Source of the DNA: Acidobacteriota bacterium
GTDB taxonomy: Bacteria > Acidobacteriota > Vicinamibacteria > Fen-336
Reading direction: 5' to 3'
NCBI GenBank assembly: GCA_003222275.1
Contig: QHVJ01000150.1
Location: 10,518-74,517 of the forward strand
DNA length: 64,000 bases
The translations under genes and the position numbers were made by a program. This document shows, in pieces, positions 3,385 through 60,397 of this stretch; position 1 is the first letter of the stretch, and each line of letters starts with the position of its first letter. The notes beneath the pieces are model-generated. The model was not told where the DNA came from and did not search any database. It saw nothing but the letters and a program-made list of their open reading frames with translations.

Positions 3385-3886
3385 GAGAACCCGTAATCGT
3401 AGCAGACGTGCGGGCCTGCTCTTTCTCGCCTTCCTCGTGCCGGCCTCCGCGATGGCCGAGGAGCTGTCGCGGACGCTTCCTCGCGAGACTCCCACCGCCG
3501 AGACGCTGGCGGCGTGGGAGCGCGCCGGCGGGCAAGCGGAGGACGGAGAGCAGGTGGTCGTCTATGCGCTGTTCGTCAACCCGCTCCGGCCCGGGCTCTA
3601 CGAGGTCACCCGCTTCCGGATCGATCGCATCGAAGGGCGCCCCGGAGGCCGGGAGCGACGGGTGAAGGACACCGAGAAGCTGATCTGGAACGCGCGGCCC
3701 GGTACGCGGGAGCCCCTCCTCTGCTACGAAAGAACGGCTCGTCGCGGGTGGCGGACGCTCTGGCTCCGCCGGTGGGAGTGGCGGCGCCTCGCACCGGGCT
3801 CCGCCGAATACCGGGCGGCGATGTTCACCGCGCTGCGGGTGTACGGCCTCCACCGCGCCCGGCTGGGCCTGCCCCCCCTGGGCTAG
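3383..3886 (+). CDS. Hypothetical secreted protein
   Basis: Start at MRTRNRSRRAGLLFLAFLVPASAMAEE (signal peptide); no recognisable family. Overlaps the divergent PP2C start by 2 nt. Confidence 0.4.
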   Translation: MRTRNRSRRAGLLFLAFLVPASAMAEELSRTLPRETPTAETLAAWERAGGQAEDGEQVVVYALFVNPLRPGLYEVTRFRIDRIEGRPGGRERRVKDTEKLIWNARPGTREPLLCYERTARRGWRTLWLRRWEWRRLAPGSAEYRAAMFTALRVYGLHRARLGLPPLG

Positions 3887-11302: not shown

Positions 11303-11785
11303 ATGAGCAACTCGGAGGAAACGAAGAAACGGGCTGCGCGCGGAGGCGAATTCATTTCGCCGGAGCGCGCGGGGGGTCAGGGGGGGTGCGACGCAGCACC
11401 CCCCCTGCTCAGTGACGAACAGCGGGTTGCCTTCGACCGGGGGGTGGCCGAGTTCAACACCGGGTACTACTTCGAGTGCCACGATACGCTGGAGGACATG
11501 TGGACCGGAATCCGCGGCCCGTCCCGGGACTTCTTCCAGGGGCTCATCCAGGTCTCGGTCGCGTTCTACCACCTCAATGGAGGCAACCTGCCGGGGGCGG
11601 AGAGCATGCTCCGGCGCGCGCTCAAGCGCTTCGCGCGCTACCCGGACCGCTACTTCGGCTTCGACCTCGCCGCCCACCGCGAAGAGCTGCAAGCGTGGCT
11701 CGACCGGATCGTGTCGGCGCGCGTGGAGGGCCTCACCGTCGCCGACCTGCCCAAGTGGAGCTTCGGTCCTCCGGAGCCCGGATGA
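11303..11785 (+). CDS. DUF309 domain protein
   Basis: FNTGYYFECHDTLEDMWTG...GLIQVSVAFYHL motif block. The N-terminal 35 codons contain the 45-bp G-run repeat element, so the true start may be the internal GTG near 11444. Confidence 0.55.
   Translation: MSNSEETKKRAARGGEFISPERAGGQGGCDAAPPLLSDEQRVAFDRGVAEFNTGYYFECHDTLEDMWTGIRGPSRDFFQGLIQVSVAFYHLNGGNLPGAESMLRRALKRFARYPDRYFGFDLAAHREELQAWLDRIVSARVEGLTVADLPKWSFGPPEPG
11365..11410. repeat. G-run hairpin element GCGGGGGGTCNGGGGGGGTGCG-N-AGCACCCCCC (copy inside the 5' region of the DUF309 ORF)
   Basis: About 90% identical over 45 bp to 54441..54486 (intergenic). A more diverged relative lies at 51452..51484. Confidence 0.45.
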
Positions 11786-13314
11786 AATGGCGCGTCGCCG
11801 TTCCGCTGCTCGGCCTGCTCCTCGCCGCCTCGTCGTTCGTACGGGCCGCCGAGCCCGAGGTGAGCGTGATCCTCTGGTTCGACACCGAGGACTACCTCCT
11901 TCCGGCCAGCGACGACGCCGCGAAGCGGGTGGCCGAGATCCTCACCGGCCGCGGTATCCGTGGCACGTTCAAGGTCGTCGGCGAGAAGGCCCGCGTCCTC
12001 GAGCAGCGCTCCCGCGCCGACGTCATCGCGGCCCTCCGGAAGCACGACATCGGTTACCACTCCAATCTCCACTCCGTGCACCCGACGCCGGCGGAGTACC
12101 TTTCCGAATGTGGCTGGCTCGACGGCATCGCCGAGTTCGTGCGTCGTGAGCGCGCGGGGGCCGGGGACGTGAGGCGGATCTTCGGGGTCCCCGGCCTCAG
12201 CTGCTACGGGCAGCCGGGCTCGTCCTGGGCACCGCAGGCCCACGCTGCCCTGCTGCAGATCGGCGTCGTGACTCCCGGCGGCATCTCCGTCTATCTCGAC
12301 GAGGGCAGCCAGGTCGGCCTCGACGAGAAGCCGTTCTGGTACGGCGGCGCGCTGAACGTCTTCAACATGGGACGCAACCAGCTCCGCATGGACCTCCACG
12401 AGACCGGCGGCCTCGAGAAGGGCTGCGCGGAGTTCAAGGCCGCCTACGACCGGCTCCGGGGTGAAGGCGGCGGGCTCGTCAGCATCTACTACCACCCCGC
12501 CGAGTGGGTGCACCAGGAGTTCTGGGACGCGGTGAACTTCCGCCGCGGCGCGAACCCGCCCCGCGAGGAGTGGAAGCGGCCACCGCAAAGGCCGCCCGCG
12601 GAGACCGAGGCCGCCTATGAGCGCTTCGGGGCGTACCTCGACTTCCAGCGCTCCCTTCCCGGCGTCAGGCACGTGACCGCCTCGGAGCTCCCGGCGATCT
12701 ATCGCAACCGCATTCGCGAGGAGGGCGCCGACCTCGCCACCGTAAACGAGATCGCGGAGCGCCTCGCGCGCGGCGGCGCGGTCGACATCCTGCGCGACCG
12801 GCGCGGCCGGTTCGTCTCGCCGGCGGAGCAGTTTGCGCTGATCACGAGCTTCCTCGAGCGCTCGATCGGAAATGGCCGGCTCCCCGCGCTCGTCGAGGTG
12901 AGTGGACTGCGGGGCCCCTCGGAGAGGCCGCCCGTGACCGAGGTCGCGGAGCTGCCGTGGCGCGCCTTCCGCGACGCTCTCCTCGACGCGGTCGACGAGG
13001 CGCACGTGCGCGCGCAGGTGCCCGCGCGCGTCTTCGCGGGCGCGAAGAAGATCGCACCCGCGGACTTCCTCCGGGCGGCGGCCGCGGTGGCCTTCGCCCT
13101 GATCGAGGCCGGACCGGGCGCGCCCCCCCGCTTCCCGGCGGCGGTCGCGATCCCGAGCGGCACTGCCGTCGCCACCGAGCGTTTCGTCGCCGAAGACTCG
13201 CCGGACCTCTTCGGCGGCTGGATCATCCACCCGGAAGGCTTCCGCGCGCCGCGCATCGTCGAGATGGCGAAGCTCCAGGCGTGGACGCTCAAGCCCGCGG
13301 AGAGAGCTCCGTAG
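11782..13314 (+). CDS. Secreted hypothetical protein, possibly carbohydrate deacetylase/esterase-like
   Basis: Start MKWRVAVPLLGLLLAASSFVRA (signal peptide) at an ATGA overlap with DUF309. Weak similarity to the NodB-like fold (LWFDTEDY). Function uncertain. Confidence 0.45.
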   Translation: MKWRVAVPLLGLLLAASSFVRAAEPEVSVILWFDTEDYLLPASDDAAKRVAEILTGRGIRGTFKVVGEKARVLEQRSRADVIAALRKHDIGYHSNLHSVHPTPAEYLSECGWLDGIAEFVRRERAGAGDVRRIFGVPGLSCYGQPGSSWAPQAHAALLQIGVVTPGGISVYLDEGSQVGLDEKPFWYGGALNVFNMGRNQLRMDLHETGGLEKGCAEFKAAYDRLRGEGGGLVSIYYHPAEWVHQEFWDAVNFRRGANPPREEWKRPPQRPPAETEAAYERFGAYLDFQRSLPGVRHVTASELPAIYRNRIREEGADLATVNEIAERLARGGAVDILRDRRGRFVSPAEQFALITSFLERSIGNGRLPALVEVSGLRGPSERPPVTEVAELPWRAFRDALLDAVDEAHVRAQVPARVFAGAKKIAPADFLRAAAAVAFALIEAGPGAPPRFPAAVAIPSGTAVATERFVAEDSPDLFGGWIIHPEGFRAPRIVEMAKLQAWTLKPAERAP

Positions 13315-13317
13315 TTA

Positions 13318-13438
13318 CCTTTAAGCAGAGGACGCGGAGGGAACAGAGAGGACGCGGAGGGAAAAAGCAGATGCTCTCTTCCTTCTCTGCGTCCTCGAAC
13401 CAGTGTCGCCTTACTCCGCGTTCTCCGCGTTGAAAGGC
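13318..13438. repeat. GC-rich palindromic MITE-like element, family CGCAGAGG (copy 1, diverged arms GCAGAGGACGCGGAGGG)
   Basis: Shares termini cttt-a-gcagagg ... ctccgcgttgaaagg and the internal ttctctgcgtcctcgaacc block with copy 3. Sits between the convergent secreted-protein gene and ggt. Confidence 0.55.
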
Positions 13439-13449
13439 AGTTCGCTCGC

Positions 13450-15138
<1,689 letters not shown>

Positions 15139-28986: not shown

Positions 28987-30009
28987 ATGAGAGCTCGAGA
29001 CGCGGCCGTCGCCCTGGCCCTCGCCGCCGCCGCGGCCGTGCCCGCGGCCGCCCAGAACCTGCAGATCAACGGGGCGGGCGCGACGTTCCCGTATCCGATC
29101 TATTCCAAGTGGTTCTCCGAGTACAACAAGCTGCACCCGACGATCCAGATCAACTACCAGTCGATCGGGTCCGGCGGGGGCATCCGGCAGCTCACCAACC
29201 AGACGGTGTTCTTCGGGGCCAGTGACGGCCCGATGACCGCCGATCAGATCCAGGCGGCGGGGGCCCGAATCCTGCACTTGCCGGCCGTGCTGGGCGGCGT
29301 GGTTCCCGTCTATAACATCCCCGACCTTTCCGGCGAGCTCCGTTTCAGCGGGCCGCTCCTGGCCGACGTCTTCCTGGGCAAGGTCACCAGGTGGAACGAT
29401 CCGGCCATCGCCCGCGAGAACCCCGGAGTGACGCTTCCGGGGAGCGACATCACGGTCGTGCACCGGTCGGACGGATCCGGCACCACGTACATCTGGGTCG
29501 ATTACCTCGCGAAGGTGTCGCCGGAGTGGAAGCAGAGGGTCGGGGTCGCGACCTCCGTCAACTGGCCGGTGGGAGTGGGCGGCAAGGGCAACGAGGGCGT
29601 GGCGGGCCTCGTCAAGCAGACACCCGGATCCATCGGCTACGTCGAGCTGATCTACGCCCTGCAGAACAAGATCGCATATGGCGCGGTCAGGAACATGGAC
29701 GGCAATTACGTGAAGGCGTCGCTCGACACGATCACCCAGGCCGCGGCCGCCACTGAAGGAAAGATGCCGGCCGACTTCCGGGTCTCCATCACCAACGCAC
29801 CCGGCAAGAACGCGTATCCGATCGCTTCTTTCACCTGGCTGCTCTTCTACGAGTCGCCGAAGGACAAGGATCGGGCGCGGGCGATGGTGGACTTCATGAA
29901 ATGGGCGCTCGGCGACGGCCAGAAATACGCCGCGGATCTGGGCTATGCCCCGCTGCCCGCCAGTGTGGTGAAGCTGGAGCTGGCCGCGCTCAGCCGGATC
30001 AAGATTTAA
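28987..30009 (+). CDS. pstS: Phosphate ABC transporter substrate-binding protein PstS
   Basis: GAGATFPYPIYSKWF...SIGSGGG...HRSDGSGTT PstS motifs; signal peptide. Confidence 0.9.
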   Translation: MRARDAAVALALAAAAAVPAAAQNLQINGAGATFPYPIYSKWFSEYNKLHPTIQINYQSIGSGGGIRQLTNQTVFFGASDGPMTADQIQAAGARILHLPAVLGGVVPVYNIPDLSGELRFSGPLLADVFLGKVTRWNDPAIARENPGVTLPGSDITVVHRSDGSGTTYIWVDYLAKVSPEWKQRVGVATSVNWPVGVGGKGNEGVAGLVKQTPGSIGYVELIYALQNKIAYGAVRNMDGNYVKASLDTITQAAAATEGKMPADFRVSITNAPGKNAYPIASFTWLLFYESPKDKDRARAMVDFMKWALGDGQKYAADLGYAPLPASVVKLELAALSRIKI

Positions 30010-30081
30010 CGCAGCGTTAACCGGGGCGCAATGCGTCGTTTACCTCGGCGGCCTATTGTTGGGTGATCCCAGGAGACGCCA

Positions 30082-31164
30082 ATGACTCGCTCCCTCCGTC
30101 GTCTCGTCGTCCTCTGGGCCGGCCTGGCCGCCGCCTGTTCGGGCGGCGGGGCGCCCCAACGTCAGACCTCGACGCTGCCGGCCGGCGAAGCGTCCGCCGG
30201 TCCCTCGGCCGCTCCGGGGCAGATCAACGGCGCGGGCGCCACGTTCCCGTACCCCATCTACTCGAAGTGGTTCTCGGAGTACAACAAGATCCGTCCCGAC
30301 GTCCGGATCAACTACCAGTCGATCGGCTCGGGCGGCGGCATCCGCCAGCTCACCAACCAGACGGTCTTCTTCGGCGCCACCGACGGGCCCATGACCGAAG
30401 AGCAGCTGAAGGCCGCTCCGGGCCCGATCGTCCACCTGCCCACGGTCCTGGGGGGCGTGGTGCCCGCCTACAACCTGTCCGGCCTTTCCGCCGAGCTGCG
30501 CTTCAGCGGGCCCCTCCTCGCCGACATCTTCCTGGGCAAGGTCAAGAAGTGGAACGACCCGGCCGTGGCCAGGGAAAACGCGGGCGCGAAGCTTCCCGCC
30601 ATGGACATCACCGTCGTGCATCGTTCGGACGGCTCGGGCACCACCTACATCTGGGTGGATTACCTCTCGAAGGTCTCGCCGGAGTGGAAGGACCGGGTCG
30701 GGGTGGCGACGTCGGTGAACTGGCCGGTGGGCGTGGGCGGGAAGGGCAACGAGGGCGTGGCCGGCCTCGTCAAGCAGACGCCGGGATCCATCGGCTACGT
30801 CGAGCTGATCTACGCCACCCAGAACAACATCGCCTACGGCTCGGTGAAGAACGCGGCCGGCAAGTACGTGAAGGCCTCCCTGCCCTCGGTGACGGCGGCG
30901 GCCGCCTCCAGCGTCGACACGATGCCGGCCGACTTCCGCGTCTCGATCACGAACGCTCCCGGGGAGGACGCGTATCCGATCTCGTCCTACACCTGGCTGC
31001 TCCTCTACGAGCATCCCGCGGACAAGGAACGCGCGCGCATCATCGTGGACTTCATGAAGTGGGCCCTCACGGGCGGCCAGAAGTACGCGCCCGAGCTCGG
31101 CTACGCGCCCCTGCCCGAGAAGGTCGTCGGGCGGGAGCTCGAAGCCCTCACGAAGATCGGATAG
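30082..31164 (+). CDS. pstS: Phosphate ABC transporter substrate-binding protein PstS (second paralog, lipoprotein-type signal)
   Basis: About 80% identical to the upstream PstS over the mature domain; lipobox LAAAC. Confidence 0.9.
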   Translation: MTRSLRRLVVLWAGLAAACSGGGAPQRQTSTLPAGEASAGPSAAPGQINGAGATFPYPIYSKWFSEYNKIRPDVRINYQSIGSGGGIRQLTNQTVFFGATDGPMTEEQLKAAPGPIVHLPTVLGGVVPAYNLSGLSAELRFSGPLLADIFLGKVKKWNDPAVARENAGAKLPAMDITVVHRSDGSGTTYIWVDYLSKVSPEWKDRVGVATSVNWPVGVGGKGNEGVAGLVKQTPGSIGYVELIYATQNNIAYGSVKNAAGKYVKASLPSVTAAAASSVDTMPADFRVSITNAPGEDAYPISSYTWLLLYEHPADKERARIIVDFMKWALTGGQKYAPELGYAPLPEKVVGRELEALTKIG

Positions 31165-34600: not shown

Positions 34601-35346
34601 AGGCCGGAGGAGCCGGCCGGGCCGACGCCCCGCCCCCGCCCGCCGACGCTCGCCGCCGCGTCCTGCTGATCGAGGACGACCGCGACATCGCGGAGGCCAT
34701 CGCATACCAGCTCGACAAGGCCGGACTGCAGGTCCGACGGGCCTTCACCGGCGAAGAGGGCCTGGAGGCCTCCCGCCGGGGAGTGGACCTGGTGCTCCTG
34801 GACCTCAACCTGCCGAGCATGGACGGGCTCGAGGTCTGCCGGATGATCCGGCGGCAGGCCGCCACCGCCCACGTGCCCATCATCATCGTCTCCGCCCGCA
34901 GCGACGAGGTGGACCGGGTGCTGGGCCTGGAGATGGGCGCGGACGACTACATGGTCAAGCCATTCAGCCTCAAGGAGCTGGCGGCCCGGTGCCGCGCGGC
35001 GTTGCGCCGGTCGGAGACGGCGTCCGGTCCCGCGGCGGCGTACGTGGACGACAACTTCGAGGTGGAGTTCGACGCCTATCTCGTGCGTTATCGCGGGCAG
35101 GAGGTGCGCCTCACCCCCAAGGAGTTCGAGCTGTTCCGCTACATGGTCGAGCGGCCGGGGCGCGTCGTCACCCGCGAGCGAGTGCTCGAGCACGTCTGGG
35201 GCTACGACACCGACATCGAGACGCGGAGCATCGACGCCCACATCCGGCGGCTGCGCATGAAGCTGGGCCCCGCCCGCGACCATGTCGAGACGATCGTGGG
35301 CCTGGGCTACCGCTTCGTTCCCAATCCCCACCCGCCTTCGTCCTGA
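34597..35346 (+). CDS. phoB: OmpR/PhoB-family response regulator (PhoB-like)
   Basis: GTG start overlapping the phoU stop. Receiver domain (LLIEDD...D...LVLLDLNLP...K) and winged-helix trans_reg_C (GLGYRF). Confidence 0.8.
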   Translation: MKAGGAGRADAPPPPADARRRVLLIEDDRDIAEAIAYQLDKAGLQVRRAFTGEEGLEASRRGVDLVLLDLNLPSMDGLEVCRMIRRQAATAHVPIIIVSARSDEVDRVLGLEMGADDYMVKPFSLKELAARCRAALRRSETASGPAAAYVDDNFEVEFDAYLVRYRGQEVRLTPKEFELFRYMVERPGRVVTRERVLEHVWGYDTDIETRSIDAHIRRLRMKLGPARDHVETIVGLGYRFVPNPHPPSS

Positions 35347-37141: not shown

Positions 37142-37827
37142 TGCGGCTCGTCGCTCAGCCGGTAGCCCAGCGTCTTCACGGTGAGGATCGACGGCGCGAG
37201 CTCGGGGATCTTCTCCCGCAGCCGGCGCACGTGCACGTCCACGGTGCGCGTGCCTTCCGCGTAGGAGTAGCCCCACACCTCCTCGAGGAGGGACTGCCGC
37301 GAGAGCACGCGCCCCCGCGCCTCGACGAGCGCCACCAGCAGCGCGAACTCCTTGGCGGTCAGGCGCACGGGACGGTCGGCCCACTTCACGGTGTGGCGGG
37401 CGTGATCGACGTGAAGGGCGCCGAAGGTGAGCGGCTCGTCGGAAGCGGGCTTGCGGTCCAGCCGGCGGAAGAGCGCGCGCACGCGCGCCACCAGCTCCTT
37501 GGGGCTGAAGGGCTTCACCACGTAGTCGTCCGCGCCCATCTCGAGCCCCACGATGCGGTCCGCCTCGTCACCGCGGGCGGTGAGCATCACCACCGGCAGG
37601 TCGCGGGTGGCCGCCTCCCGCCGCAGCTCGGCGCACAGGGTCAGCCCGTCGATCCCCGGCAGCTGCAGGTCGAGGATCACGAGCTGATAGCCCCCGGAGC
37701 GGGCGCGGTCGAGGGCGCGGCGGCCGTCGGCGAGGGCGTCCACCGCCCAGCCGTCCGCGGACAGGTAGTGCACGAGCAGCTCGACGATGTCGGGGTCGTC
37801 CTCGACGACGAGAGCGCGGCGGGACAT
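37138..37827 (-). CDS. OmpR-family response regulator (partner of the kinase)
   Basis: Receiver domain plus trans_reg_C winged helix; 229 aa. Confidence 0.85.
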   Translation of the reverse strand: MSRRALVVEDDPDIVELLVHYLSADGWAVDALADGRRALDRARSGGYQLVILDLQLPGIDGLTLCAELRREAATRDLPVVMLTARGDEADRIVGLEMGADDYVVKPFSPKELVARVRALFRRLDRKPASDEPLTFGALHVDHARHTVKWADRPVRLTAKEFALLVALVEARGRVLSRQSLLEEVWGYSYAEGTRTVDVHVRRLREKIPELAPSILTVKTLGYRLSDEPQ

Positions 37828-44249: not shown

Positions 44250-45219
44250 GATGCAGGTGCTGATCACCGGCGTGGCGGGCTTCGTGGGCGGCCACATGGT
44301 GGACTTCCTCCGCCACCAGCACCCGGAGGCCACCATCGTCGGCCTCGACAACCACCCTGGCGCCCGCGCCCGCGCCCTGGGCATCGAGATCATCCAGGCC
44401 GACCTCGAAGACGCGGCGTCGGTCCGCGCGGCGTTCGCCCGGCTCCGCCCGGACCGGGTGATCCACCTCGCGGCGCAGTCGAGCCCGCAGCGCTCGTGGG
44501 AAGACCCGGCGGGCACGCTGCGGACGAACGTGCTGGGGATGCTGCACCTGCTGGAGGCGGTCCGGTCGGGAGCGGCGGCGCCCCGGATCCTCGCGATCGG
44601 CAGCGCGGACGAGTACGGCCTCGTCTCGCCGCACGAGGCTCCACTGCGCGAGGACGCCCCCCTCCGGCCCGCGTCGCCCTACGCCGTGAGCAAGGTGGCC
44701 CAGGGGTATCTCGCCCTGCAGTACGCCCTCTCCCCGGGCCTGCACGTCGTGCGCACCCGGACCTTCCACCACACCGGTCCCCGCCGGGGAGAGCAGTTCG
44801 CCGAGAGCTCGTTCGCCCGGCAGCTGGCCGAGATCGAGGCCGGCCAGCGCCCCCCGAGGCTCGAGGTCGGGAACCTGGAAGTCGTGCGCGACTTCACGGA
44901 CGTGCGCGACGTCGTGCGGGCGTACTGGATGCTGCTGGACCGGGGCGTGCCCGGCGAGGTCTACAACGTATGCTCGGGGCGGGGCGTGCGCCTGGCCGAG
45001 TTGCTCGAGCGGCTCATCGCGCTCTCGGAGCGGCGGGTCGAGGTCCATGTCGACGTTTCGCGGTTGCGTCCGGTGGACGCCCCCATCCTCATCGGCGACC
45101 CCGGCCGCCTGCGCGCCGCCACCGGGTGGGAGCCGGGCATCCCGCTCGAGCGCACGCTCGCCGACCTCCTCGACTACTGGCGCGAGCGCGTCGGCCTGAA
45201 TGCCGCCCCTGCCAACTGA
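44250..45219 (+). CDS. NAD-dependent epimerase/dehydratase (GDP-mannose 4,6-dehydratase / GDP-6-deoxy-mannose reductase-like)
   Basis: Start MQVLITGVAGFVGGH; YAVSKV catalytic motif; extended SDR. Confidence 0.75.
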
Positions 45220-45223
45220 CCGG

Positions 45224-45370
45224 CTTTTCCACGCAGAGGCCGCAGAGGATACGCAGAGGCCGCAGAGGGCAATGAAGAAGAGCCAGATCCGCATCGAGGA
45301 TCGGCGGCCATCGTCATGCTCTCGTTCTCTGCGGCCTCTGCGGACTCTCTGCGGCCTCTGCGTGGAAAAG
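45224..45370. repeat. GC-rich palindromic MITE-like element, family CGCAGAGG (copy 2, about 147 bp, near-perfect 44-bp terminal inverted repeats)
   Basis: cttttccacgcagaggccgcagaggatacgcagaggccgcagagg ... ctctgcggcctctgcggactctctgcggcctctgcgtggaaaag. The arms are tandem 9-10-mers CGCAGAGGNN. Abuts the epimerase stop, and its right end supplies the ATG of the next gene. Confidence 0.6.
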
Positions 45371-45372
45371 CA

Positions 45373-46722
45373 ATGGTACTGACGCCGGCGGAGGCCAAGC
45401 GGAAGCTGGTCCACATGGCCGTGGGCTCCTTCGCGCTCCTCCTCCGCTTCATGACGTGGCGTCAGGCCGCCTTGATGGCCGTGGCCGCCTTCTTCTTCAA
45501 CTGGCACGCGCTGCCGCGCCTCGGCGGACGCGGGTTGTGGCGGGAGGCGGATCACGGCCGCGGCTACCCGCTGGGCATCCTCCTCTATCCGCTCGCGGTG
45601 CTCGCCCTCGTCCTCGTCTTCCACGACGAGCTGTGGAAGGCGGCCGCGGTGTGGGGCCTCCTCGCCATCGGCGACGGCATGGCCGCGTTCTTCGGCCTCG
45701 CCGCCGGAGGGCCGCGCCTGCCGTGGAACCGTGACAAGAGCTGGGCGGGATTTCTGGCCTTCGTCGTGTTCGGCACCATGGCCGCCTCGGTGCTCGCCGC
45801 GTGGACGCTGCGGCTGCCTCTCGTCGCGGGGGCCTCGGCGCGCATCCTCGCCGTGATCGTCCCCGCGGCGCTCGTTTGCGCCCTGGTCGAGTCCATGCCT
45901 ACGACGCTCGACGACAACCTCACGGTGCCCCTGGTGGGGGCGGCGGCCATCGCTCTCTTCTCGCTCGCCGAGCCGGCCCGGCTCCTCGAAGACCCCGAGG
46001 CCGGCCCGCGCCTCCTCCTCGGGCTCGTCGTCAACGGCGTGATCGCGATGGCCGCCCGCGCGACGTCTTCCCTCGACACCGCAGGAGCGGTCTCGGCCGT
46101 GATCATCGGCACCGCGATCACGGCCGGGCTCGGGCTGGCGGGCCTGCTTCTCATGATCGCCTTCTTCGTGCTCGGCAGCGCGGCCACCCGCCTGGGCCAT
46201 GCCCGCAAGACCGCGCGCGGGATCGCGCAGGAAAAGGGCGGAGCCCGCGGATGGCGCAACGCGTGGGCGAACGGCAGCGTGCCGGCGGTCCTCGCGCTGA
46301 TGGCCGCGATGGCGCCCTCCGAGCTGAGAGCGGTCTTCACGCTGGCCTACGCGGCCGCGGTCGCCACCGCCGCCGCCGACACCTGTTCCTCCGAGGTGGG
46401 GAAGGCCTATGGCGACCGGACCGTCGTCATCGCCACCCTGCAGCCGGCCCCACCCGGCACGGAAGGAGGGGTGAGCCTCGAGGGGACGCTGGCCGCGGCC
46501 GCGGCGGCGGCGCTGGTGGCGGCGATGGGGCCCGTGGGGCGGCTCTACGCCTGGACGCTCGTCCCGCTCGTCGCCGTGGCCGGTGTGCTGGGCAGCCTGG
46601 CCGAGAGCGTTCTCGGCCCGGTGGCGGAGCGCCGGGGCTGGATGGGCAACGACGTGCTGAATGTCTTGAACACGGCATTCGGTGCCGCGATCGCCGTATT
46701 GATGCTGCGAGTGCTGTCTTGA
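45373..46722 (+). CDS. Polytopic membrane protein: N-terminal CTP-dependent phytol/dolichol-kinase-like region fused to a DUF92 (TMEM19-like) domain
   Basis: Start MVLTPAEAKRK. Multiple TM helices; DUF92-like C-terminus (ARGWRNAWANGSVPAVLAL...AAADTCSSEVG). Confidence 0.55.
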   Translation: MVLTPAEAKRKLVHMAVGSFALLLRFMTWRQAALMAVAAFFFNWHALPRLGGRGLWREADHGRGYPLGILLYPLAVLALVLVFHDELWKAAAVWGLLAIGDGMAAFFGLAAGGPRLPWNRDKSWAGFLAFVVFGTMAASVLAAWTLRLPLVAGASARILAVIVPAALVCALVESMPTTLDDNLTVPLVGAAAIALFSLAEPARLLEDPEAGPRLLLGLVVNGVIAMAARATSSLDTAGAVSAVIIGTAITAGLGLAGLLLMIAFFVLGSAATRLGHARKTARGIAQEKGGARGWRNAWANGSVPAVLALMAAMAPSELRAVFTLAYAAAVATAAADTCSSEVGKAYGDRTVVIATLQPAPPGTEGGVSLEGTLAAAAAAALVAAMGPVGRLYAWTLVPLVAVAGVLGSLAESVLGPVAERRGWMGNDVLNVLNTAFGAAIAVLMLRVLS

Positions 46723-46725
46723 GCC

Positions 46726-47490
46726 CTACTTCTCTTCGTCGTCCAGCAGGCCGTCGAGCAGGGACTCGGCCGACGACGGAGGTGTGGTGGCCGCATCCTC
46801 CGCTTCCGTGCGGGCGATGATGTCCTCCAGGCTCGGCTCGCCCTCGGCCGCCGGCCTCGACGGCGCTTCGGCCGCGATGCCCGGCCCCGACCGGCCCTCC
46901 CCGGCGACGGCGCCGTCGCGGTACTCGCCCAGGACCACCCGCGAGGGCCGCGCGATGCGATCTTTCAGCCGCCAGCCGCGCTGCAGCTCCTTGACGACCA
47001 CGTTGTGGTGCTCGGACTCGGTGACCGGCTCGATGGCGACGGCTTCGCTCACATGGGGGTCGAAGGGCAGGCCGAGCACGGGGATGCGCTCCAGTCCCTC
47101 TTCCTTGAGCGTCTGCAGGAGCTGGGTGCGGACGAGGATCAGGCCTTCGACCAGGGGGGGGCTCGCGAAGTTCACCTGCGCCGCCTCGAGGGCGCGGTCC
47201 AGGTTGTCCATGATGTCGATGAACTTCAGCAGCAGGCGCTCGTGCCGCCCCTCGAACCGGCGCTCGACGTTGCGGGAGGTGCGGTCACGGAACGTTTCGT
47301 TTTCGGTCTTGAGCTGCCGGTAGGCTTCCAGCACCTCGTTCAACCGGTCCTCGGCGAGGCGGGCGCGCTGCGTGGCCGGATCGGGAGGGGGGGCTTCGTC
47401 CGTTTCGAGCAGGTCGGCGAGCCCTCCCGTGGCCTCCTCGGAAGGAGGCGGGTCCAACTCGCGGTCTTTGGCGGGCCGCTTTTCGGCCAC
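46726..47490 (-). CDS. grpE: Nucleotide exchange factor GrpE (with extended acidic C-terminal tail)
   Basis: GrpE core LLKFIDIMDNLDRAL...PFDPHVSEAV...VVKELQRGW. Confidence 0.85.
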   Translation of the reverse strand: MAEKRPAKDRELDPPPSEEATGGLADLLETDEAPPPDPATQRARLAEDRLNEVLEAYRQLKTENETFRDRTSRNVERRFEGRHERLLLKFIDIMDNLDRALEAAQVNFASPPLVEGLILVRTQLLQTLKEEGLERIPVLGLPFDPHVSEAVAIEPVTESEHHNVVVKELQRGWRLKDRIARPSRVVLGEYRDGAVAGEGRSGPGIAAEAPSRPAAEGEPSLEDIIARTEAEDAATTPPSSAESLLDGLLDDEEK

Positions 47491-47532
47491 AGTCCTCCTG
47501 AGCTCGCGACGGAAACCCTTTGGCTCCGCCGA

Positions 47533-48996
47533 TTATAGCCCGTGGCGCCGCTGCGCGCGCGTGCCCGCGACGAGCGCCGTGAGATCCATGACGTTCGTGC
47601 CCGTGGGCCCGGTGATGATCAGGTCGCCCAGCGGGCCGAGGAAGCTCCACGAGTCGTTGTCGTCCAGGAAGGCCGAGGCCGGCGCCAGCCCGAGCTGCCC
47701 GGCCCGGGCGAGCGTCCGGTCGTCCACCACCCCACCGGCCGCGTCGCTGTTTCCGTCGATGCCGTCGGTGGCCAGGCTCGCGATCACGGCGCCAACCGGA
47801 AACCCCGCCAGCGGCTCCGCCGCGGCGAGCACCAACTCCTGGTTGCGCCCGCCCCGGCCGGCCCCCTTCACCGTCACCGTCGTTTCACCGCCCGCAAGCA
47901 GGCACACGGGAGGCGCGGCGGGCCGGCCCTCCTCCACGCACTCCCGCAACATCGCCGTCAGCGCCCGGGCCACTTCCGCCGCCTCGCCTTCGAGGCGGGT
48001 GGTCAGCACGAGGGGGCGCAGGCCCTGCCGGCGCGCCTCGCGGGCGGCCGCGGCCACCGAGAGCCGGTTGCTGCCCACGACGTCGAAGGCCACCCGGCGG
48101 AAGAGGGGATCGCCCGGCTTGGGCGTCTCGGGCCGCTCGCCCCGCGCTCCCGCTTCGAGATGGCGCCGCACGGCGGCCGGCACCCTCTCGCGCACTCCCT
48201 TCCGCTCGAGCACCTCGAGGGCCGTGTCGTAGGTGGTGGGGTCGGGGGCGGCCAGGCCGGAGGCGATCGTCGATGGATCGTCGCCGACGACGTCGGAGAG
48301 CGCGAGACAGGCCACCCGCGCGGGGGCCGCCACCCGCACCAGCCCGCCGCCCTTGAGGCGGGAGAGGTGCTTGCGCACGGCGTTCAGCTCGGCGATGGTC
48401 GCGCCGGCGCGCAGGAGCGCGGCGGTGGTCCGCGCCTTGTCGTCGAGCGTGAGGCCCTCGGCCGGCGCGGGAAGGAGGGCCGAGGCGCCGCCGGAAACGA
48501 GCAGCAGCAGCAGGTCGTCGGGACCCAGGGAATGGGCGAGCGCCTCCACCTCGTCGGCGGCGCGGCGGCCGGCCTCGTCGGGGACGGGATGGCCGGCGAG
48601 CAGGCGGCGCGTCCGCGCGAGGGGAATGCGGTCGGACACGTCGACGGCCAGCGCATCGGAGAGGACGGGCCCGAGGACGTCCTCGGCGGCGCGGGCCATG
48701 GCGGAAGCCGCCTTGCCGGCGGCCACGAGGACGAGGCGTCCGTGGCCCACACGGTGGCGCCGCCGCGCCACCCGGAGGATACGACCGTTCAAGACCAGAT
48801 GGCGGCGGACGAGGCGGGCGGGATCGGCGGCGGCGAGACCGGCCGCGAGGACGGCGGCGGCGGCGCGGCGCAGGCGGGGACGGTCCCCGCGCCTGCTCAG
48901 TGTCCCTGACGCGGATCCAGCTCGCTGAGGCGGGTGAGCAGCTCGAAGTTCTGCAGCAGCGTCTCCGCCACGGCGGGGAAGTCGTCGCGACAGCAC
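47533..48996 (-). CDS. Glycerate kinase, MOFRL family (glycerate 2-kinase type)
   Basis: VAAGKAASAMARAAE N-terminal motif; MOFRL C-terminal domain GGETTVTVKG...GRGGRNQE. The start at 48996 overlaps the upstream small gene by 100 nt, so the true start is uncertain. Confidence 0.7.
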   Translation of the reverse strand: MLSRRLPRRGGDAAAELRAAHPPQRAGSASGTLSRRGDRPRLRRAAAAVLAAGLAAADPARLVRRHLVLNGRILRVARRRHRVGHGRLVLVAAGKAASAMARAAEDVLGPVLSDALAVDVSDRIPLARTRRLLAGHPVPDEAGRRAADEVEALAHSLGPDDLLLLLVSGGASALLPAPAEGLTLDDKARTTAALLRAGATIAELNAVRKHLSRLKGGGLVRVAAPARVACLALSDVVGDDPSTIASGLAAPDPTTYDTALEVLERKGVRERVPAAVRRHLEAGARGERPETPKPGDPLFRRVAFDVVGSNRLSVAAAAREARRQGLRPLVLTTRLEGEAAEVARALTAMLRECVEEGRPAAPPVCLLAGGETTVTVKGAGRGGRNQELVLAAAEPLAGFPVGAVIASLATDGIDGNSDAAGGVVDDRTLARAGQLGLAPASAFLDDNDSWSFLGPLGDLIITGPTGTNVMDLTALVAGTRAQRRHGL

Positions 48997-49199
48997 ACCT
49001 GGTCCAGGTCGGCCATGAGCTTGGTGCAGGCCCGTTTCATGACGGCGCGGTTGCCTTCGTTCACCAGCCCGTTCAGCTCGAGCTGCTCGAGGTGCCGGAG
49101 GAACTCTTCACGGTAGAAGTCGGAAAGGGCCGCTCGTACGGCAGGGTCGCTCTTCTCTGATCCCACGTCTCCTCCGCAAACGGTTCGAATTGTACTCAT
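48897..49199 (-). CDS. Small conserved hypothetical protein
   Basis: Protein-like composition (DFYREEFLRHLEQLELNGLVNEGNRAVMKRACTKLMADLDQV). Start taken at the MSTIRT Met; no family recognised. Confidence 0.35.
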   Translation of the reverse strand: MSTIRTVCGGDVGSEKSDPAVRAALSDFYREEFLRHLEQLELNGLVNEGNRAVMKRACTKLMADLDQVCCRDDFPAVAETLLQNFELLTRLSELDPRQGH

Positions 49200-49242
49200 C
49201 GTAGCCAACGCCGGCAGGGCTGTCAATTTTTGTGTCGACGCC

Positions 49243-50268
49243 TCATCCCAGCGGCAGATGGGGCTCGGCGTCGAGGTCCCACCCCGCGCGTACGCCCTTG
49301 CGGAACGCGACCTCGCCCGCCGCCGCGATCATCGCCGCGTTGTCGGTCGAGAGCGCGATCGGCGGCGCGAAGAGCGGCCGCCCGAGCTCCTCGGCGGCGC
49401 GCGCGGCCTCGCGGCGGAGCAGGCTGTTGGCGGCAACGCCGCCCGTCAGGATCAGGCTGGCCGGACAGCGCTCCTCCGCGGCCCGGCGCAGGCGCCGCAC
49501 GAGGGCGGTGACGACCGCGCGCTGGAACGAAGCGACGAGGTTCTTCACCTCGTCGGGCACGCGCGCCGGATCGGACACGGGAGCGATCCCGTTCTTGCGC
49601 ACGTGATGCAGCACGGCCGTCTTGATCCCGCTGAAGGAGAAGTCGGCCTTGCCGTCCTTGATCCGGGCCACCGTGAACTCCACCGCCCGGTCGTCGGCCC
49701 CCTGGGCCAGGCGGTCGATGACCGGCCCCCCGGGATAGCCCAGGCCGAGCAGCTTCGCCACCTTGTCGAACGCTTCGCCCGCGGCGTCGTCGCGGGTGCG
49801 GCCGAGCAGGTGGAACTCGCCCTCCGCGGGCACCTCGAAGAGGCTCGTGTGGCCGCCGGAGACGACGAGGGCGAGCGCGGGCAGCCGCACCGCGCCCGCA
49901 TGGGCGAGGAACGGGGCCTGGAGGTGGCCCGCGATGTGGTGCACGGGAACGAGCGGCTTGCCATGGACGTAGGCGAGGCCCTTGGCCGCCTGCACGCCCA
50001 CGAGCAGCGAGCCGACGAGCCCCGGCCCCTGCGTCACCGCCACTGCGTCGAGGGCCGCGTACTCCATCGCCGCCTCGGCCATCGCGCTCGAGATGACGGG
50101 GCAGATGTTCTCGATGTGGTGGCGGGAGGCGAGCTCGGGCACCACGCCCCCGAAGGGCGCGTGGATGGCGGCCTGGCTGGAGACGATGCTGGACAGGATG
50201 CGGGTCCCGTCCTCCACCACCGCCGCCGCCGTCTCGTCGCAGGACGTCTCGATACCGAGGATGCGCAT
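49243..50268 (-). CDS. tsaD: tRNA N6-adenosine threonylcarbamoyltransferase TsaD
   Basis: MRILGIETSCDETAAAVV; HHIAGH metal-binding motif; Kae1/TsaD family. Confidence 0.9.
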   Translation of the reverse strand: MRILGIETSCDETAAAVVEDGTRILSSIVSSQAAIHAPFGGVVPELASRHHIENICPVISSAMAEAAMEYAALDAVAVTQGPGLVGSLLVGVQAAKGLAYVHGKPLVPVHHIAGHLQAPFLAHAGAVRLPALALVVSGGHTSLFEVPAEGEFHLLGRTRDDAAGEAFDKVAKLLGLGYPGGPVIDRLAQGADDRAVEFTVARIKDGKADFSFSGIKTAVLHHVRKNGIAPVSDPARVPDEVKNLVASFQRAVVTALVRRLRRAAEERCPASLILTGGVAANSLLRREAARAAEELGRPLFAPPIALSTDNAAMIAAAGEVAFRKGVRAGWDLDAEPHLPLG

Positions 50269-50283
50269 GGCTAGGCCAATGGT

Positions 50284-50398
50284 CTTTCAACGCAGAGGCC
50301 GCAGAGGAACGCAGAGGCCGCAGAGAACAGTGACGTCATTTCCCTTTCTCTGCGTCCTCGAACCGGGTTGCCTTCTCTGCGTTCTCTGCGTTGAAAGG
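50284..50398. repeat. GC-rich palindromic MITE-like element, family CGCAGAGG (copy 3, 14-bp perfect TIR CTTTCAACGCAGAG)
   Basis: ctttcaacgcagaggccgcagaggaacgcagaggccgcagag ... ctctgcgttctctgcgttgaaagg. Lies between the mtnA 3' end and the tsaD start. The mtnA stop codon and last ~21 codons lie inside the element. Confidence 0.6.
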
Positions 50399-51448
50399 CA
50401 ATGCGGCGATCCGGGCCAGGCTCTCGGTGTAGGGCTCCCGGGCGATTCCGTTCTCGGTGATGATCGCGCTGACGTAGCGGTGGGGCGTGACGTCGAACGC
50501 GGGATTGCGCACCGCGACGCCTTCGGGGGCCATGCGCCGCCCGCCGTGGTGGGTCACCTCCGCGGCCGCCCGCTCCTCGATGGGAATGCCGTCGCCCGAG
50601 GGAGTGGCGAGGTCGATCGTGGAGACGGGCGCGGCCACGTAGAAGGGCAGGCCGTTCTCGTGGGCGAGGACGGCCACGGTGTAGGTGCCGATCTTGTTCG
50701 CGACGTCCCCGTTGGCGGCGATGCGGTCGGCTCCCACCACCACCGCGTCCACCTCTCCCCGCGCCATGAGGTGGCCGGCCATGCTGTCGGCGATGAGCGT
50801 GGTGGCGATCCCGTCCTGGGCCAGCTCCCATGCCGTCAGCCGCGCGCCCTGCAGGTGGGGACGGGTCTCGTCGGCGAAGACGTTCACCACCTTGCCCTGC
50901 CGCGCCGCGGAGCGGATCACCCCGAGGGCGGTGCCGTAACCTGCCGTCGCCAGCGCCCCCGCGTTGCAGTGGGTCAGGAGCCGGGCCCGAGGTGGGATCA
51001 GCTCCGCTCCGATGTCGCCCATGCGCCGGCACGCGGCGAGGTCCTCGGACTGCATCGCCAGCGCCTCGTCGAGCAGCGCCTGCCTGACGGCGGCGCCGCC
51101 GCGAGCCTGCTCGGTCTCGAACCGGCGGCGCATCCGCGCGATGGCCCAGAACAGGTTGATGGCGGTCGGGCGCGTGGACGCGAGCTCCTGGCAGATGCCG
51201 TCGAGCTCGGCGCGCAGCGCGGGCCCTTCCCCCGCCGCGTTGCGCACGCCCAGGGCGATGCCGAAGGCCGCGGCCACGCCGATGGCGGGCGCGCCCCGGA
51301 TGGCCATGTCCTTGATCGCGGCCGCCACCTCCGCGTGGCTCCGGCAGCGGATCATCACCTGCTCGGCGGGCAGCCGCCGCTGGTCGATGAGCACCACTTC
51401 GCCGTCCTGCCACTCCACGGTGGGGACCATTCGAGGATCGTAATGCAA
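50336..51448 (-). CDS. mtnA: S-methyl-5-thioribose-1-phosphate isomerase MtnA (eIF-2B alpha/beta/delta family)
   Basis: [16 protein letters not shown]-terminus and eIF2B-like Rossmann core. The start may be Met7 (51430). The C-terminal ~21 residues are encoded by the repeat element. Confidence 0.8.
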
Positions 51449-51621
51449 TTCGGGGGGGTAAGAGCATGCGAAAGCACCCCCCCGCGCGCATTCGCGCTCC
51501 CCCCCAAGTCGCTGACTCGAGTGCAGACCGAGCGTAGCGAGGTCCCGCGGGCGCGGCTCCGCTCGGCGGAGGCGCGCAGCAATCGCTTCGCTCGCTGCTA
51601 CGTGCTACCTGCTCCATCTTC

Positions 51622-54389: not shown

Positions 54390-54454
54390 GCGTTCCCAAA
54401 TTGCAAGGCTGCGAGCGAAGCGCGATTCACTCGCGCGCAGCGAGCGGGGGGTCT

Positions 54455-54479
54455 GGGGGGGTGCGCCGCTAGCACCCCC
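54455..54479. terminator. GC-rich hairpin (GGGGGGTGC-7nt-GCACCCCCC) between convergent NHL genes; part of the G-run repeat family
   Basis: 9-bp perfect stem with a 7-nt loop in a 94-bp convergent intergenic region. No obvious U-tract, so possibly a bidirectional factor-independent or Rho-assisted terminator. Confidence 0.35.
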
Positions 54480-54483
54480 CAGC

Positions 54484-60368: not shown

Positions 60369-60397
60369 GTCTGCCTCCTTGCGCGGCATGCCCGCCC

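Follow-up and report, generated by a model that had tools for sequence, protein, structure and literature searches.

Background

Among the described systems closest to the elements reported here, the 23S rRNA intervening sequence (IVS) of Coxiella has an inverted-repeat stem at its ends, a small ORF and heptamers (GACAGAT) in tandem, and is excised by RNase III (PMC4990558). The number of heptamers varies between strains, and the host RNA tolerates the insert because its stem is cut by RNase III (PMC4990558). Xanthomonas (GGGAATC) and cyanobacteria (STRR, GGGGAYT) contain intergenic tandem 7-mers that vary in length among close relatives and whose function is unknown; the Xanthomonas arrays are frequently arranged in convergent pairs (70-75 pairs) that could fold into stem-loops, and the arrays of both groups were reported without a mobile-element association (PMC4692102). 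REP sequences are defined by a palindromic unit of 20-40 bp tagged with GTAG or CGTC and by an associated RAYT (PMC3733652). The function of the GxxExxY protein family, to which the elements are linked below, is listed as unknown by Pfam and by Steczkiewicz 2012, and the literature documents no nuclease activity, DNA binding or transposition for this protein.

Palindromic elements in the window

The window, that is, the whole 64-kb stretch of DNA that was analysed, contains exactly three homologous GC-rich palindromes of 115-150 bp, as established by alignment of all three; none is assigned a strand. An earlier note had described them as one family of MITE-like palindromes at gene boundaries, built from tandem words and their inverted complement, and this description stands. 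The arms (42-51 nt, separated by loops of 22-59 nt) follow a common plan, TTTCA(A/C)C and then 3-4 tandem CGCAGAG-type words. The strict 9-mer that had been proposed as the repeat unit does not hold: the word is a core of 7-8 nt, CGCAGAG[G], plus a spacer of 1-3 nt, which gives a period of 9-11 nt.

Copy 1 (13318-13438) is ORF-less and has a core that extends from TTTAAGC, starting at 13320, to GTTGAAA at 13429-13435. Its left arm (13320-13361) reads TTTAAG-CAGAGG-ACGCGGAGGG-AACAGAGAGG-ACGCGGAGGG, and its right arm (13385-13435) comprises three CTCYGCG words, a 16-nt insert and GTTGAAA. Copy 2 (45223-45371) is the most symmetric of the three, with TTTTCCAC and then four CGCAGAGG words in each arm; the near-perfect terminal inverted repeats attributed to it are confirmed as two arms of 45 nt (45223-45267 and 45327-45371) that are 93% complementary and enclose a 59-nt loop. 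In copy 3 (50284-50398), TTTCAAC begins at 50285 and GTTGAAA finishes at 50396; the left arm (50284-50325) has four words, and the right arm (50348-50396) has three words, the insert GAACCGGGTTGCCTT and GTTGAAA. Copies 1 and 3 share an asymmetric design in which the right arm consists of three words plus an insert TCCTCGAACC..GCCTT, and an arm of this type also occurs in the MAG 'Acidobacteria bacterium AA32' (L024). The arms of copies 2 and 3 are about 95% alike, and their loops are unrelated.

The arm pattern TTTCMACGCRGAGRMCGCRGAG, with up to three mismatches allowed, matches five of the six window arms and no other site in the window, against 0.01 matches expected by chance from shuffled sequence. 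An nhmmer profile derived from 279 arms found in other genomes recovers exactly these six arms in the 64 kb, with no further arm at E below 0.1. Hairpin energies on the two strands are -59/-61 kcal/mol for copy 1, -110/-108 for copy 2 and -66/-65 for copy 3, and the folding z-scores range from -4.3 to -13.8 (about -12 for copy 2). All three copies thus have the terminal inverted repeats around a short non-coding element that characterize MITEs. Rfam gives no match in the window at gathering thresholds, rRNA families included, and only chance miRNA-like hairpin matches at E values up to 10. The FopS sRNA of Bacteroides is a separate family present in Rfam, to which the element gave no match.

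Gene junctions and the MtnA tail

Copy 1 lies between convergent genes. It starts 3 nt past the TAG (13312-13314) of a gene for a secreted protein that ends at 13314, and it ends 11 nt short of the stop, at 13450, of a convergent gamma-glutamyltranspeptidase gene (13450-15138, minus strand). Copy 2 starts 3 nt past a TGA (45217-45219) and ends 1 nt before an ATG at 45373; it takes up the 153 nt that separate the epimerase stop (45219) from the start of the DUF92 gene (45373). Copy 3 is located at the junction of the minus-strand genes mtnA and tsaD, directly upstream of tsaD. The statement that all three copies immediately follow stop codons is therefore correct for copies 1 and 2 only, since the mtnA stop codon (50336-50338, minus strand) falls within copy 3. 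In relatives, the places occupied by two of the three elements are tight operon junctions, one of them directly upstream of tsaD.

The element-derived 3' end of mtnA (50336-50401, minus strand) comprises the last 21 codons and the TGA stop. The encoded MtnA has 370 residues, and its alignment stops at query residues 344-355 in all 80 relatives compared, whose C-termini are unrelated to the 21-residue tail. Judging from these alignments, MtnA has probably gained a new C-terminal tail encoded by copy 3. Elements of this kind produce false C-terminal extensions in genome annotation; MtnA, with 21 extra residues, and a Sphingomonas GxxExxY CDS are two such cases.

Occurrence in other genomes

The additional copies that the earlier note anticipated exist in other genomes: arm-bearing loci number more than 110 among the matches listed and come from at least 15 phyla, including cultured Gemmatirosa, Bacteroides and Scytonema, which carry the same arm. 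The host genomes range from 42 to 73% GC, and the arms are alike regardless of GC content. Two Gemmatirosa megaplasmids carry elements in at least 32 and 31 places (at least 63 together), and PLSDB contains 57 places in 18 records, mostly from Bacteroides. Arms occur in 11 viral contigs, and phage-like contigs are among the carriers; no cultured phage in INPHARED was matched. CACAGAT-type words are present in loci L056 and L101.

In two homologous phage-like loci (L116 and L117), the elements are 86-94% identical and the genes 76-80%, a difference which suggests recent activity or homogenisation. A second element is nested inside the loop of another in Gemmatirosa, and an IS256-like element lies within an element's loop in L097. 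The transposase of the latter was rejected as the mobiliser, having its own inverted repeats and merely interrupting an element. A classical autonomous IS was also rejected: the ORFs between widely spaced arm pairs (14 loci) are unrelated housekeeping genes.

Eleven nucleotides of the arm (TCAACGCAGAG) are shared with a commercial template-switch oligo. An artefact of this origin is rejected because the elements are found in long-read complete chromosomes and in genomes of cultured isolates, vary between lineages and are embedded in frame at gene ends.

A permuted form, arm'-GTTAAAG-AGCCA-TTTCAAC-arm, in which 5 nt separate the two heptamers, dominates in Pyrinomonadaceae, where it constitutes a dispersed family. 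This 'inside-out' arrangement could be read as an unrecombined circle junction if the elements were sites of a tyrosine recombinase, such as integron attC or attP, with TTTCAAC/GTTGAAA as cores and the words as arm-type sites. The R''/R' consensus of attC is RYYYAAC/GTTRRRY, and the terminal heptamers agree with it at six of seven positions. Such an origin is nevertheless very improbable: the neighbours of the elements are housekeeping genes in conserved order rather than cassettes, no integrase lies beside the copies that were examined, the pairing of the arms is nearly perfect and lacks the bulged bases conserved in attC, and the gene linked to the arms encodes a PD-(D/E)XK protein, not a recombinase.

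Insertion at conserved gene junctions

In relatives L123-L128 (71-76% amino acid identity), mtnA and tsaD almost abut and no element separates them, where the window has the 115-nt copy 3. The spacer between the epimerase and DUF92 genes is 25 nt long and without an element in L123, compared with 153 nt in the window. The emptiness of these orthologous junctions in the closest relatives implies that the window elements are insertions; the empty-site relatives being only about 70-75% identical at the amino acid level, gain rather than loss is probable but not formally certain at each single site. Two junctions in Bacteroides and its relatives are comparable: an element separates gmd from fcl in B. 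finegoldii and B. ovatus, where Phocaeicola has an overlapping TAATG stop/start, and radA and the gene for a FAD-protein, 13 nt apart in Parabacteroides, have a 470-bp full cassette between them in B. finegoldii. These comparisons indicate that the window palindromes are insertions, and that elements of this family arrived as whole units where relatives have an empty junction. The elements thus show the dispersed multiple copies and the presence or absence at orthologous sites that are typical of MITEs.

The loci nearest to the window are metagenome contigs, about 75-80% identical at the amino acid level. Among loci around relatives of mtnA, 4 of 80 (663 kb) contain any word array. An apparent empty site in the L116/L117 pair turned out to contain another sequence, which may be a decayed one, and is left out of the evidence.

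The elements insert where a few nucleotides separate one gene's stop codon from the start that follows, or within a gene's final codons. Target-site duplications, which the earlier note had named as a feature to look for, were not found: a direct repeat is lacking both in the flanks of 60 complete elements and at the radA junction, although the divergence of the empty sites leaves room for a duplication of 1-2 bp. Neither set of flanks contains a conserved insertion target. The absence of a duplication would fit single-strand transposition, as expected if the elements were of the REP/REPIN type and a domesticated IS200/IS605-like Y1 transposase (RAYT) moved them in the form of single-stranded hairpins; they also resemble REPINs in size, in being extragenic hairpins and in their high copy number. 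This origin too is highly unlikely, because the arms have neither a GTAG or CGTC tag nor a REP unit of 20-40 bp, each REP family is confined to a lineage, in contrast to this arm, which many phyla share, and no Y1 transposase was present among the ORFs inspected, which are a sample and not a genome-wide set.

The proximity to gene ends raises the question of a role in the host transcript. The median distance from an element to a stop codon is about 10 nt, a gene 3' end is adjacent in 47 of 54 cases, and one phage-like tail gene cluster has an element at nearly every junction. The hairpins are very stable, and their arms are conserved where the loops have diverged, as between copies 2 and 3. 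Such features would be expected of RNA structures selected by the host at cistron boundaries as RNase III sites, 3'-end stabilisers or partial terminators. The function as terminators suggested in the earlier note is not upheld: there is no U-tract, the stems being followed by GTTGAAAGG, and a terminator scan of 44500-51500 calls neither copy 2 nor copy 3. Neither strand folds consistently better than the other, and G-U pairs are not in excess over A-C on the sense strand; this lack of asymmetry argues against selection on one transcript. In addition, the orthologous junctions of relatives function without elements, and structure alone does not require identical words across phyla of 42-73% GC. 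Host selection of this kind is accordingly a rather improbable explanation of the elements.

Association with GxxExxY genes

Longer relatives of the elements carry a gene. A full cassette, about 470-660 bp in length, has a small gene between a left arm and its inverted counterpart on the right; in the left arm, TTTCA(A/C)C precedes 3-5 tandem C-R-C-R-G-A-G(G) words with a period of 9-11 nt. The gene encodes a GxxExxY protein of roughly 125 residues (TIGR04256/PF13366), a member of the PD-(D/E)XK nuclease superfamily. A D..ExK motif is invariant in the GxxExxY proteins compared, and matches to the Cas4 core are weak. In L087, the cargo matches TIGR04256 at 1e-45 and PF13366 at 3e-43, and its arms are matched exactly by the search pattern that identifies the window arms, which links the two. 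In B. finegoldii (L210), an annotated GxxExxY CDS lies between TTCAC-(CACAGAGG/CGCAGAGG/CACGGAGG) arms. Besides radA and its next gene, GxxExxY genes are wedged between fabD and fabG and between ade and a manC-like gene.

Tandem-word arrays adjoin the GxxExxY gene in 12 of 12 loci examined, and they are present in all GxxExxY loci that were sampled independently of arms (6/6 viral and 4/4 plasmid). In 8 of 11 GxxExxY loci, the flanks score higher for inverted repeats than any of 400 random controls. Two clades of the protein correspond to two types of word, and some of the words are AT-rich 12-mers unrelated to CGCAGAG. In L087 and L211 the last words of the array overlap the first codons of the gene, which indicates one integrated unit. 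Readings of the words as Shine-Dalgarno or anti-SD mimicry, boxA, parS, DnaA-box, dif, a CRISPR-repeat tag or a Type III restriction site found no support; they explain neither the AT-rich words nor the GxxExxY link.

No GxxExxY ORF exists in the window, either between the arms or elsewhere in the 64 kb. Coding remnants of the gene were not detected in the loops of ORF-less elements with the profile used, which was a poor one. As the window copies have both arms and a short loop but no such ORF, they would be ORF-less derivatives, and the evidence as a whole makes it probable that they are non-autonomous, MITE-like copies of the GxxExxY cassette family.

Several observations run against this assignment. 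The gene is present in only 2 of about 120 arm-bearing loci, and 108 of 110 pattern loci, like the window, are without it. The Gemmatirosa gene, which is frameshifted, lies between two complete mini-elements and not inside one, and the arrays in L212 and L220 are direct rather than inverted. Simple cut-and-paste, moreover, does not explain the permuted form of Pyrinomonadaceae. The scarcity of the gene, the Gemmatirosa arrangement, the nesting of elements in one another's loops and the IS256-like element in the L097 loop would also suit a hairpin repeat that is primary and mobilised by host functions or by some other enzyme; the GxxExxY gene would in that case be a separate selfish gene, such as a free-standing homing endonuclease, with a preference for hairpin loops. 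This alternative appears unlikely, given that every independently sampled GxxExxY gene has word arrays, that the type of word, AT-rich 12-mers included, tracks the protein clade, and that words extend into the first codons of the gene in L087 and L211.

Proposed mechanism and implications

If the window elements belong to the cassette family, a GxxExxY nuclease supplied in trans by a full-length copy may bind the tandem words, and a cut at or near the terminal heptamer would then move or copy the element, by transposition or by nuclease-driven homing. After transcription, the arms would pair into a stem of 35-60 bp that RNase III could cut, by analogy with the 23S rRNA IVS, parting the upstream from the downstream cistron. 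It is proposed that this separation by stem cutting allows insertions inside operons, even those of rRNA, to be tolerated. The present effect of the window elements is likely to be a processed or stabilised 3' end of the upstream genes together with the new MtnA tail, and a dedicated host function is less likely.

A broader interpretation is put forward more tentatively, as a possibility that falls short of being probable: GxxExxY proteins (about 125 aa, PD-(D/E)XK) may be the catalytic component of an unrecognised class of bacterial mobile elements, the smallest autonomous ones (about 470-660 bp), with ends made of tandem protein-binding words and a transcript self-excised from host RNA via RNase III. 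This class would extend over at least 15 phyla and phages and would be the source of ORF-less hairpin populations, including the window copies, and possibly of the ORF-bearing 23S IVS and of the heptamer arrays of Xanthomonas and cyanobacteria.

Should the link between arms and gene hold, it would give the large 'unknown function' nuclease family PF13366/TIGR04256 a function, the mobilisation of tiny cassettes, and would account for intergenic hairpin repeats that abound in bacteria of soil, water and the gut, cultured Bacteroides and Gemmatirosa among them, as well as in phage-like contigs. Three findings that have lacked an explanation for decades would also be connected: the ORF-bearing 23S IVS, intergenic tandem heptamer arrays and small 'orphan' genes in conserved operons. 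The elements put double-stranded RNA stems of 35-60 bp into operons, and mRNA processing should be affected.

Comparison with known systems

The IVS-type architecture and the GxxExxY gene family are already known; no description of the window element itself was found. The searchable literature, queried with the arm sequences and for MITE, foldback and REP elements in these phyla, holds none. The earlier suggestion of a possibly undescribed repeat class is only partly right: it fits the element, for which Rfam and the searchable literature gave no description, and not its IVS-like plan or the GxxExxY family, which already has a name.

Bacterial MITEs (Correia, RUP, Nezha) resemble the elements in having terminal inverted repeats, a length of 100-300 bp and a dispersed intergenic distribution, in occasional fusion to gene ends and in the existence of longer relatives that have the same termini and carry a gene. 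The elements differ from them in that no target-site duplication is seen, the partner gene encodes a PD-(D/E)XK protein of about 125 aa and not a DDE or known transposase, and the arms, which have the same sequence across phyla, are built of 9-11 nt words in tandem. REP, BIME and REPIN sequences are likewise extragenic hairpins at gene 3' ends, mosaic or nested and of high copy number, with a proposed role in mRNA stabilisation; however, no GTAG- or CGTC-tagged unit or RAYT was found here, and REP sequences are species-specific whereas this element is cross-phylum. The Xanthomonas and cyanobacterial arrays use other words and have no reported terminal heptamer or linked gene.

Eukaryotic Foldback (FB) transposons have long inverted arms of tandem short repeats, and hAT and CACTA elements have a short terminal motif followed by multiple short transposase-binding repeats. 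These belong to another domain of life and use other enzymes, so that they resemble the elements in architecture alone. Phages carry free-standing homing endonuclease genes, small nuclease genes that lie between conserved genes without disrupting them; unlike the cassettes, these genes have a single cognate locus and neither inverted-repeat arms nor dispersed ORF-less copies.

The 23S rRNA IVS (Coxiella, Leptospira, Brucella, Xanthomonas S23p type) shares with the elements its small size (about 430 nt), an inverted-repeat long stem and a sporadic, horizontally transferred distribution, and with the cassettes tandem heptamers that adjoin a small ORF. The IVS occupies helix 25 or 45, whereas the window contains no rRNA and its copies lie at mRNA gene junctions; the IVS ORF encodes the four-helix-bundle S23p (PF05635), as opposed to GxxExxY (PF13366) in the cassettes, and the window copies are ORF-less. 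The stem and tandem heptamers of the published Coxiella IVS (PMC4990558) are both found in the window elements.

Structure and homology of the window elements

Alignment on both strands identified a common plan in the three palindromic elements of the window, c1 (13318-13438), c2 (45223-45371) and c3 (50284-50398): a terminal (C)TTTCA(A/C)C, three or four tandem (N)CGCAGAG(G) words spaced 9-11 nt, a loop of 22-59 nt and a reverse-complement arm ending in GTTGAAA(G). c2 is nearly symmetric (45-nt arms, 93% complementary). In the right arm of c1 and c3 one word is substituted by TCCTCGAACC(A/G)G..GCCTT, a common asymmetry indicating that these copies share an orientation and are related by descent. 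All three form a long hairpin on either strand (-59 to -110 kcal/mol; z-scores -4.3 to -13.8). A degenerate arm 22-mer (at most three mismatches) matched five of the six window arms and nothing else, against 0.01 expected from shuffles, and a profile of 279 arms taken from other genomes recovered exactly the six arms within the 64 kb. The proposal of the earlier note that the copies form one homologous family, alike beyond their GC composition, is borne out by the alignment, the 22-mer and the profile; an artefact of composition is ruled out by the shuffle expectation, the profile and the hairpin z-scores.

The window also contains a second, unrelated intergenic repeat of 80 nt (11332-11411 and 54407-54486; 74% identical) that contains two hairpins, among them GGGGGGGTGC-N6-7-GCACCCCCC. 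Each copy lies on the plus strand just outside genes, and the hairpin pattern has two matches versus none expected. Tandem paralogous duplications at 59242-61124 and 29061-30518 (periods of ~1211-1214 nt at 70-76% identity and 1158 nt at 80% identity) and a 167-nt inverted repeat (34849-35015 versus 37457-37623, 77%) are unrelated to the palindromic elements.

Gene context

According to Pfam, c1 lies between convergent genes for a secreted protein (TAG at 13312-13314) and a gamma-glutamyltranspeptidase (stop at 13450), c2 fills the 153-nt gap from the TGA of an NAD-dependent epimerase/dehydratase gene (45219) to the ATG of a DUF92 membrane protein gene (45373), and c3 separates mtnA (IF-2B family) from tsaD, both on the minus strand. 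The mtnA frame enters c3 for 21 codons and reaches a TGA in the loop (50336-50401). Thus, the elements do sit at gene boundaries; their placement immediately after stop codons, also claimed earlier, is correct for c1 and c2 only, as c3 contains the mtnA stop. The suggested role as terminators finds no support, since c1, c2 and c3 lack a U-tract and a terminator scan calls neither c2 nor c3.

Spurious C-terminal tails arise where annotated or apparent coding sequences enter arms, as in the 21 extra residues of the window MtnA and in a 142-residue Sphingomonas parapaucimobilis GxxExxY protein (locus L219, 310-738), in which the right arm encodes the final ~20 residues.

Evidence for insertion

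A metagenome scan for MtnA obtained 80 relatives, whose alignments all stop by residues 344-355 of the window protein (370 residues). For the six closest (loci L123-L128; 71-76% identity), tsaD starts ~0-60 nt past the mtnA stop with no element, and in L123 the epimerase/DUF92 junction is kept, with 25 nt from TGA to GTG. Thus, the nearest available relatives lack an element at two of the three sites occupied in the window. Such word arrays occur in only four of the 80 MtnA-relative loci (663 kb), versus three elements in the 64-kb window. Bacteroides finegoldii and B. ovatus both carry an element between gmd and fcl, genes that overlap at TAATG in Phocaeicola. From sequence comparison, the window elements are insertions, the empty sites being seen in fairly distant relatives (71-76% identity for MtnA). 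Elements are gained as units and are dispersed.

In the aligned junction region the gmd/fcl elements of B. finegoldii (L207) and B. ovatus (L209) are far more diverged than their flanks, with words exchanged among CACAGAGG, CACGGAGG and CGCAGAGG and the loop replaced, suggesting that elements turn over rapidly or undergo gene conversion.

The label MITE-like, used in the earlier note, fits except for a target-site duplication, which was not found in the flanks of 60 complete elements or at the radA junction, and a proven transposase. ORFs between widely spaced arm pairs in 14 loci included no DDE-type autonomous partner; the IS256-like gene of locus L097 merely interrupts an element. This insertion sequence of the IS256 family has inverted repeats of its own and lies inside an element loop (L097, 235-1888), so loops tolerate or attract other mobile DNA. 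The arms carry no REP-type GTAG/CGTC tag, and the elements do not qualify as REPINs. They correspond to no Rfam family, show no strand bias in folding and are not members of the Bacteroides FopS sRNA family.

Distribution across bacteria, phages and plasmids

A 22-mer scan of 185,579 species genomes found at least 110 loci, and the family therefore has copies beyond the window. Phyla among the matches listed, by record title, include Acidobacteriota, Planctomycetota, Verrucomicrobiota, Chloroflexota, Pseudomonadota (alpha, beta, gamma), Desulfobacterota, Binatia, Gemmatimonadota, Cyanobacteria, Nitrospirota, Latescibacterota, Vulcanimicrobiota, Abditibacteriota, Ignavibacteriota (Melioribacteraceae) and Synergistota. 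Words and terminal heptamer recur in the opposite arm, which the 22-mer pattern left free. The composition of flanking DNA runs from AT-rich (cyanobacteria) to 73% GC; thus, arm sequence is kept whatever the host composition. The pan-bacterial word consensus is C-R-C-R-G-A-G(G), with C1, C3 and GAG fixed and changes almost all A/G at positions 2 and 4, a pattern that a hairpin requirement alone is insufficient to yield. Complete elements (n = 60) have a median length of 126 bp (range 70-314 bp). In a rough tally, a gene 3' end adjoins 47 of 54 elements at a median stop-to-element distance of ~10 nt, both figures being approximate because the heuristic miscalled c1.

The arm is present in 11 viral contigs. 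Two (L116 and L117; IMG/VR 3300035696) contain homologous phage- or GTA-like tail gene clusters with an element at nearly every gene junction, and identity is 86-94% between elements versus 76-80% between genes. In L116, one element (3509-3711) has a ~130-nt cargo whose short ORF belongs to no known family, and another tail-cluster observation is that the last nine codons of one gene are supplied by an element. Cultured hosts, identified via PLSDB, are Gemmatirosa kalamazoonensis, B. finegoldii, B. ovatus and Scytonema. The G. kalamazoonensis megaplasmids contain elements at no fewer than 32 and 31 places, one nested within the loop of another. The Bacteroides form, TTTCAC-(CACAGAGG/CACGGAGG/CGCAGAGG)x3-loop-inverse-GTGAAA, directly follows dnaN and miaB and is also present downstream of eno and in the gmd/fcl junction.

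Variant arrangements also exist. An "inside-out" dispersed family of Pyrinomonadaceae and other Acidobacteriota, (CTCTGCG)x4-GTTAAAG-AGCCA-TTTCAAC-(CGCAGAG)x4, often lies within a further palindrome, GGTGCCCTAAAT...ATTTAGGGCACC (loci L005, L020, L029, L030, L061, L064, L071, L077, L085, L090, L091 and L093); a circular intermediate or tandem copies may underlie it. One Planctomycetota MAG has direct-tandem arms with no inverted partner (L079, 3100-3382; L087, 5337-5520): L079 has head-to-tail copies of a 60-nt unit (arm plus TTTTTTGTATCAACAACAAATAAAACAGC), and three successive arms precede a GxxExxY gene in L087. Other tandem words form inverted pairs within or nested with elements (GATGAGT/GATGAAT, CGGTTAATCA, GATTACACG, GGTAAAT, CGATCAC, CACAGAT and CATCCGG; L006, L007, L008, L012, L027, L045, L054, L056, L058, L101 and L103), which suggests many sister families.

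Link to GxxExxY nuclease genes

In L087, exact-pattern arms a few hundred bases apart enclose an ORF matching NCBIfam TIGR04256 "GxxExxY protein" (1e-45) and Pfam PF13366 "PDDEXK_3" (3e-43). An annotated GxxExxY CDS of B. finegoldii (WP_032839887.1) is similarly bounded, by GTTCAC-CACAGAGGA-CGCAGAGGA-CACGGAGG on the left and CTCTGTGA-CCTCTGTG-TCCTCTGTG-GTGAAA on the right. This unit of ~470 bp occupies the gap from the radA stop to the next ATG; in Parabacteroides distasonis, radA and the same neighbour are 13 nt apart. The radA/FAD-protein junction is a hot spot, empty in Parabacteroides (L221), filled by the cassette in B. finegoldii (L210) and occupied in Phocaeicola massiliensis (L222, 480-1180) by a cysteine-rich gene that is unrelated, spans ~640 bp and lacks word arrays.

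To guard against circularity, further GxxExxY genes were sampled independently of the arms. The terminal motif and tandem-word arrays adjoin the gene in each of the six viral loci that a GxxExxY alignment retrieved, five of which use quite different AT-rich 12-mers (for example, TTTACTTAAAAT). Four further loci, on plasmids or chromids, have the same layout: those of Gemmatirosa, Prevotella, Sphingomonas (where the gene separates fabD from fabG) and Bernardetia (where it lies between ade and a guanylyltransferase gene). For 8 of 11 loci, none of 400 random controls reaches the inverted-repeat score of the 170-nt flanks; in a ninth, from Sphingomonas, the right arm lies within the annotated CDS 3' end. 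Two GxxExxY protein clades match two word types. The D..ExK nuclease motif is kept in all proteins compared, with weak similarity to the Cas4 core and no solved structure detectable by sequence. These data show that the elements are physically linked to GxxExxY genes and, as far as sequence can indicate, the link to the nuclease is specific. No description of it was found in the open-access literature; the sole survey listing PF13366 classes it as of unknown function, with multiple transfers between divisions (PMC3424549).

The GxxExxY nuclease may bind the words and mobilise both full-length and ORF-less copies. Once transcribed, the stem would be a substrate for RNase III. Under this model, elements placed between cistrons would do no harm, and the mRNA upstream would keep a stem at its 3' end.

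Comparison with known systems

MITEs and REPINs are the nearest functional categories, and among described systems the 23S rRNA intervening sequence (IVS) comes closest in architecture. The Coxiella IVS is a 428-nt "selfish element" excised by RNase III, with three tandem GACAGAT heptamers, variable in number among strains, just upstream of a small ORF (S23p) (PMC4990558). The window elements share the stem and tandem words; however, they are ORF-less and lie outside rRNA, and the gene of their full-length relatives is GxxExxY, not S23p. The word arrays are also paralleled by the Xanthomonas GGGAATC arrays, often in convergent pairs, and the cyanobacterial heptamer arrays, described but unexplained (PMC4692102). 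The family consists of small inverted-repeat mobile elements of the IVS type.
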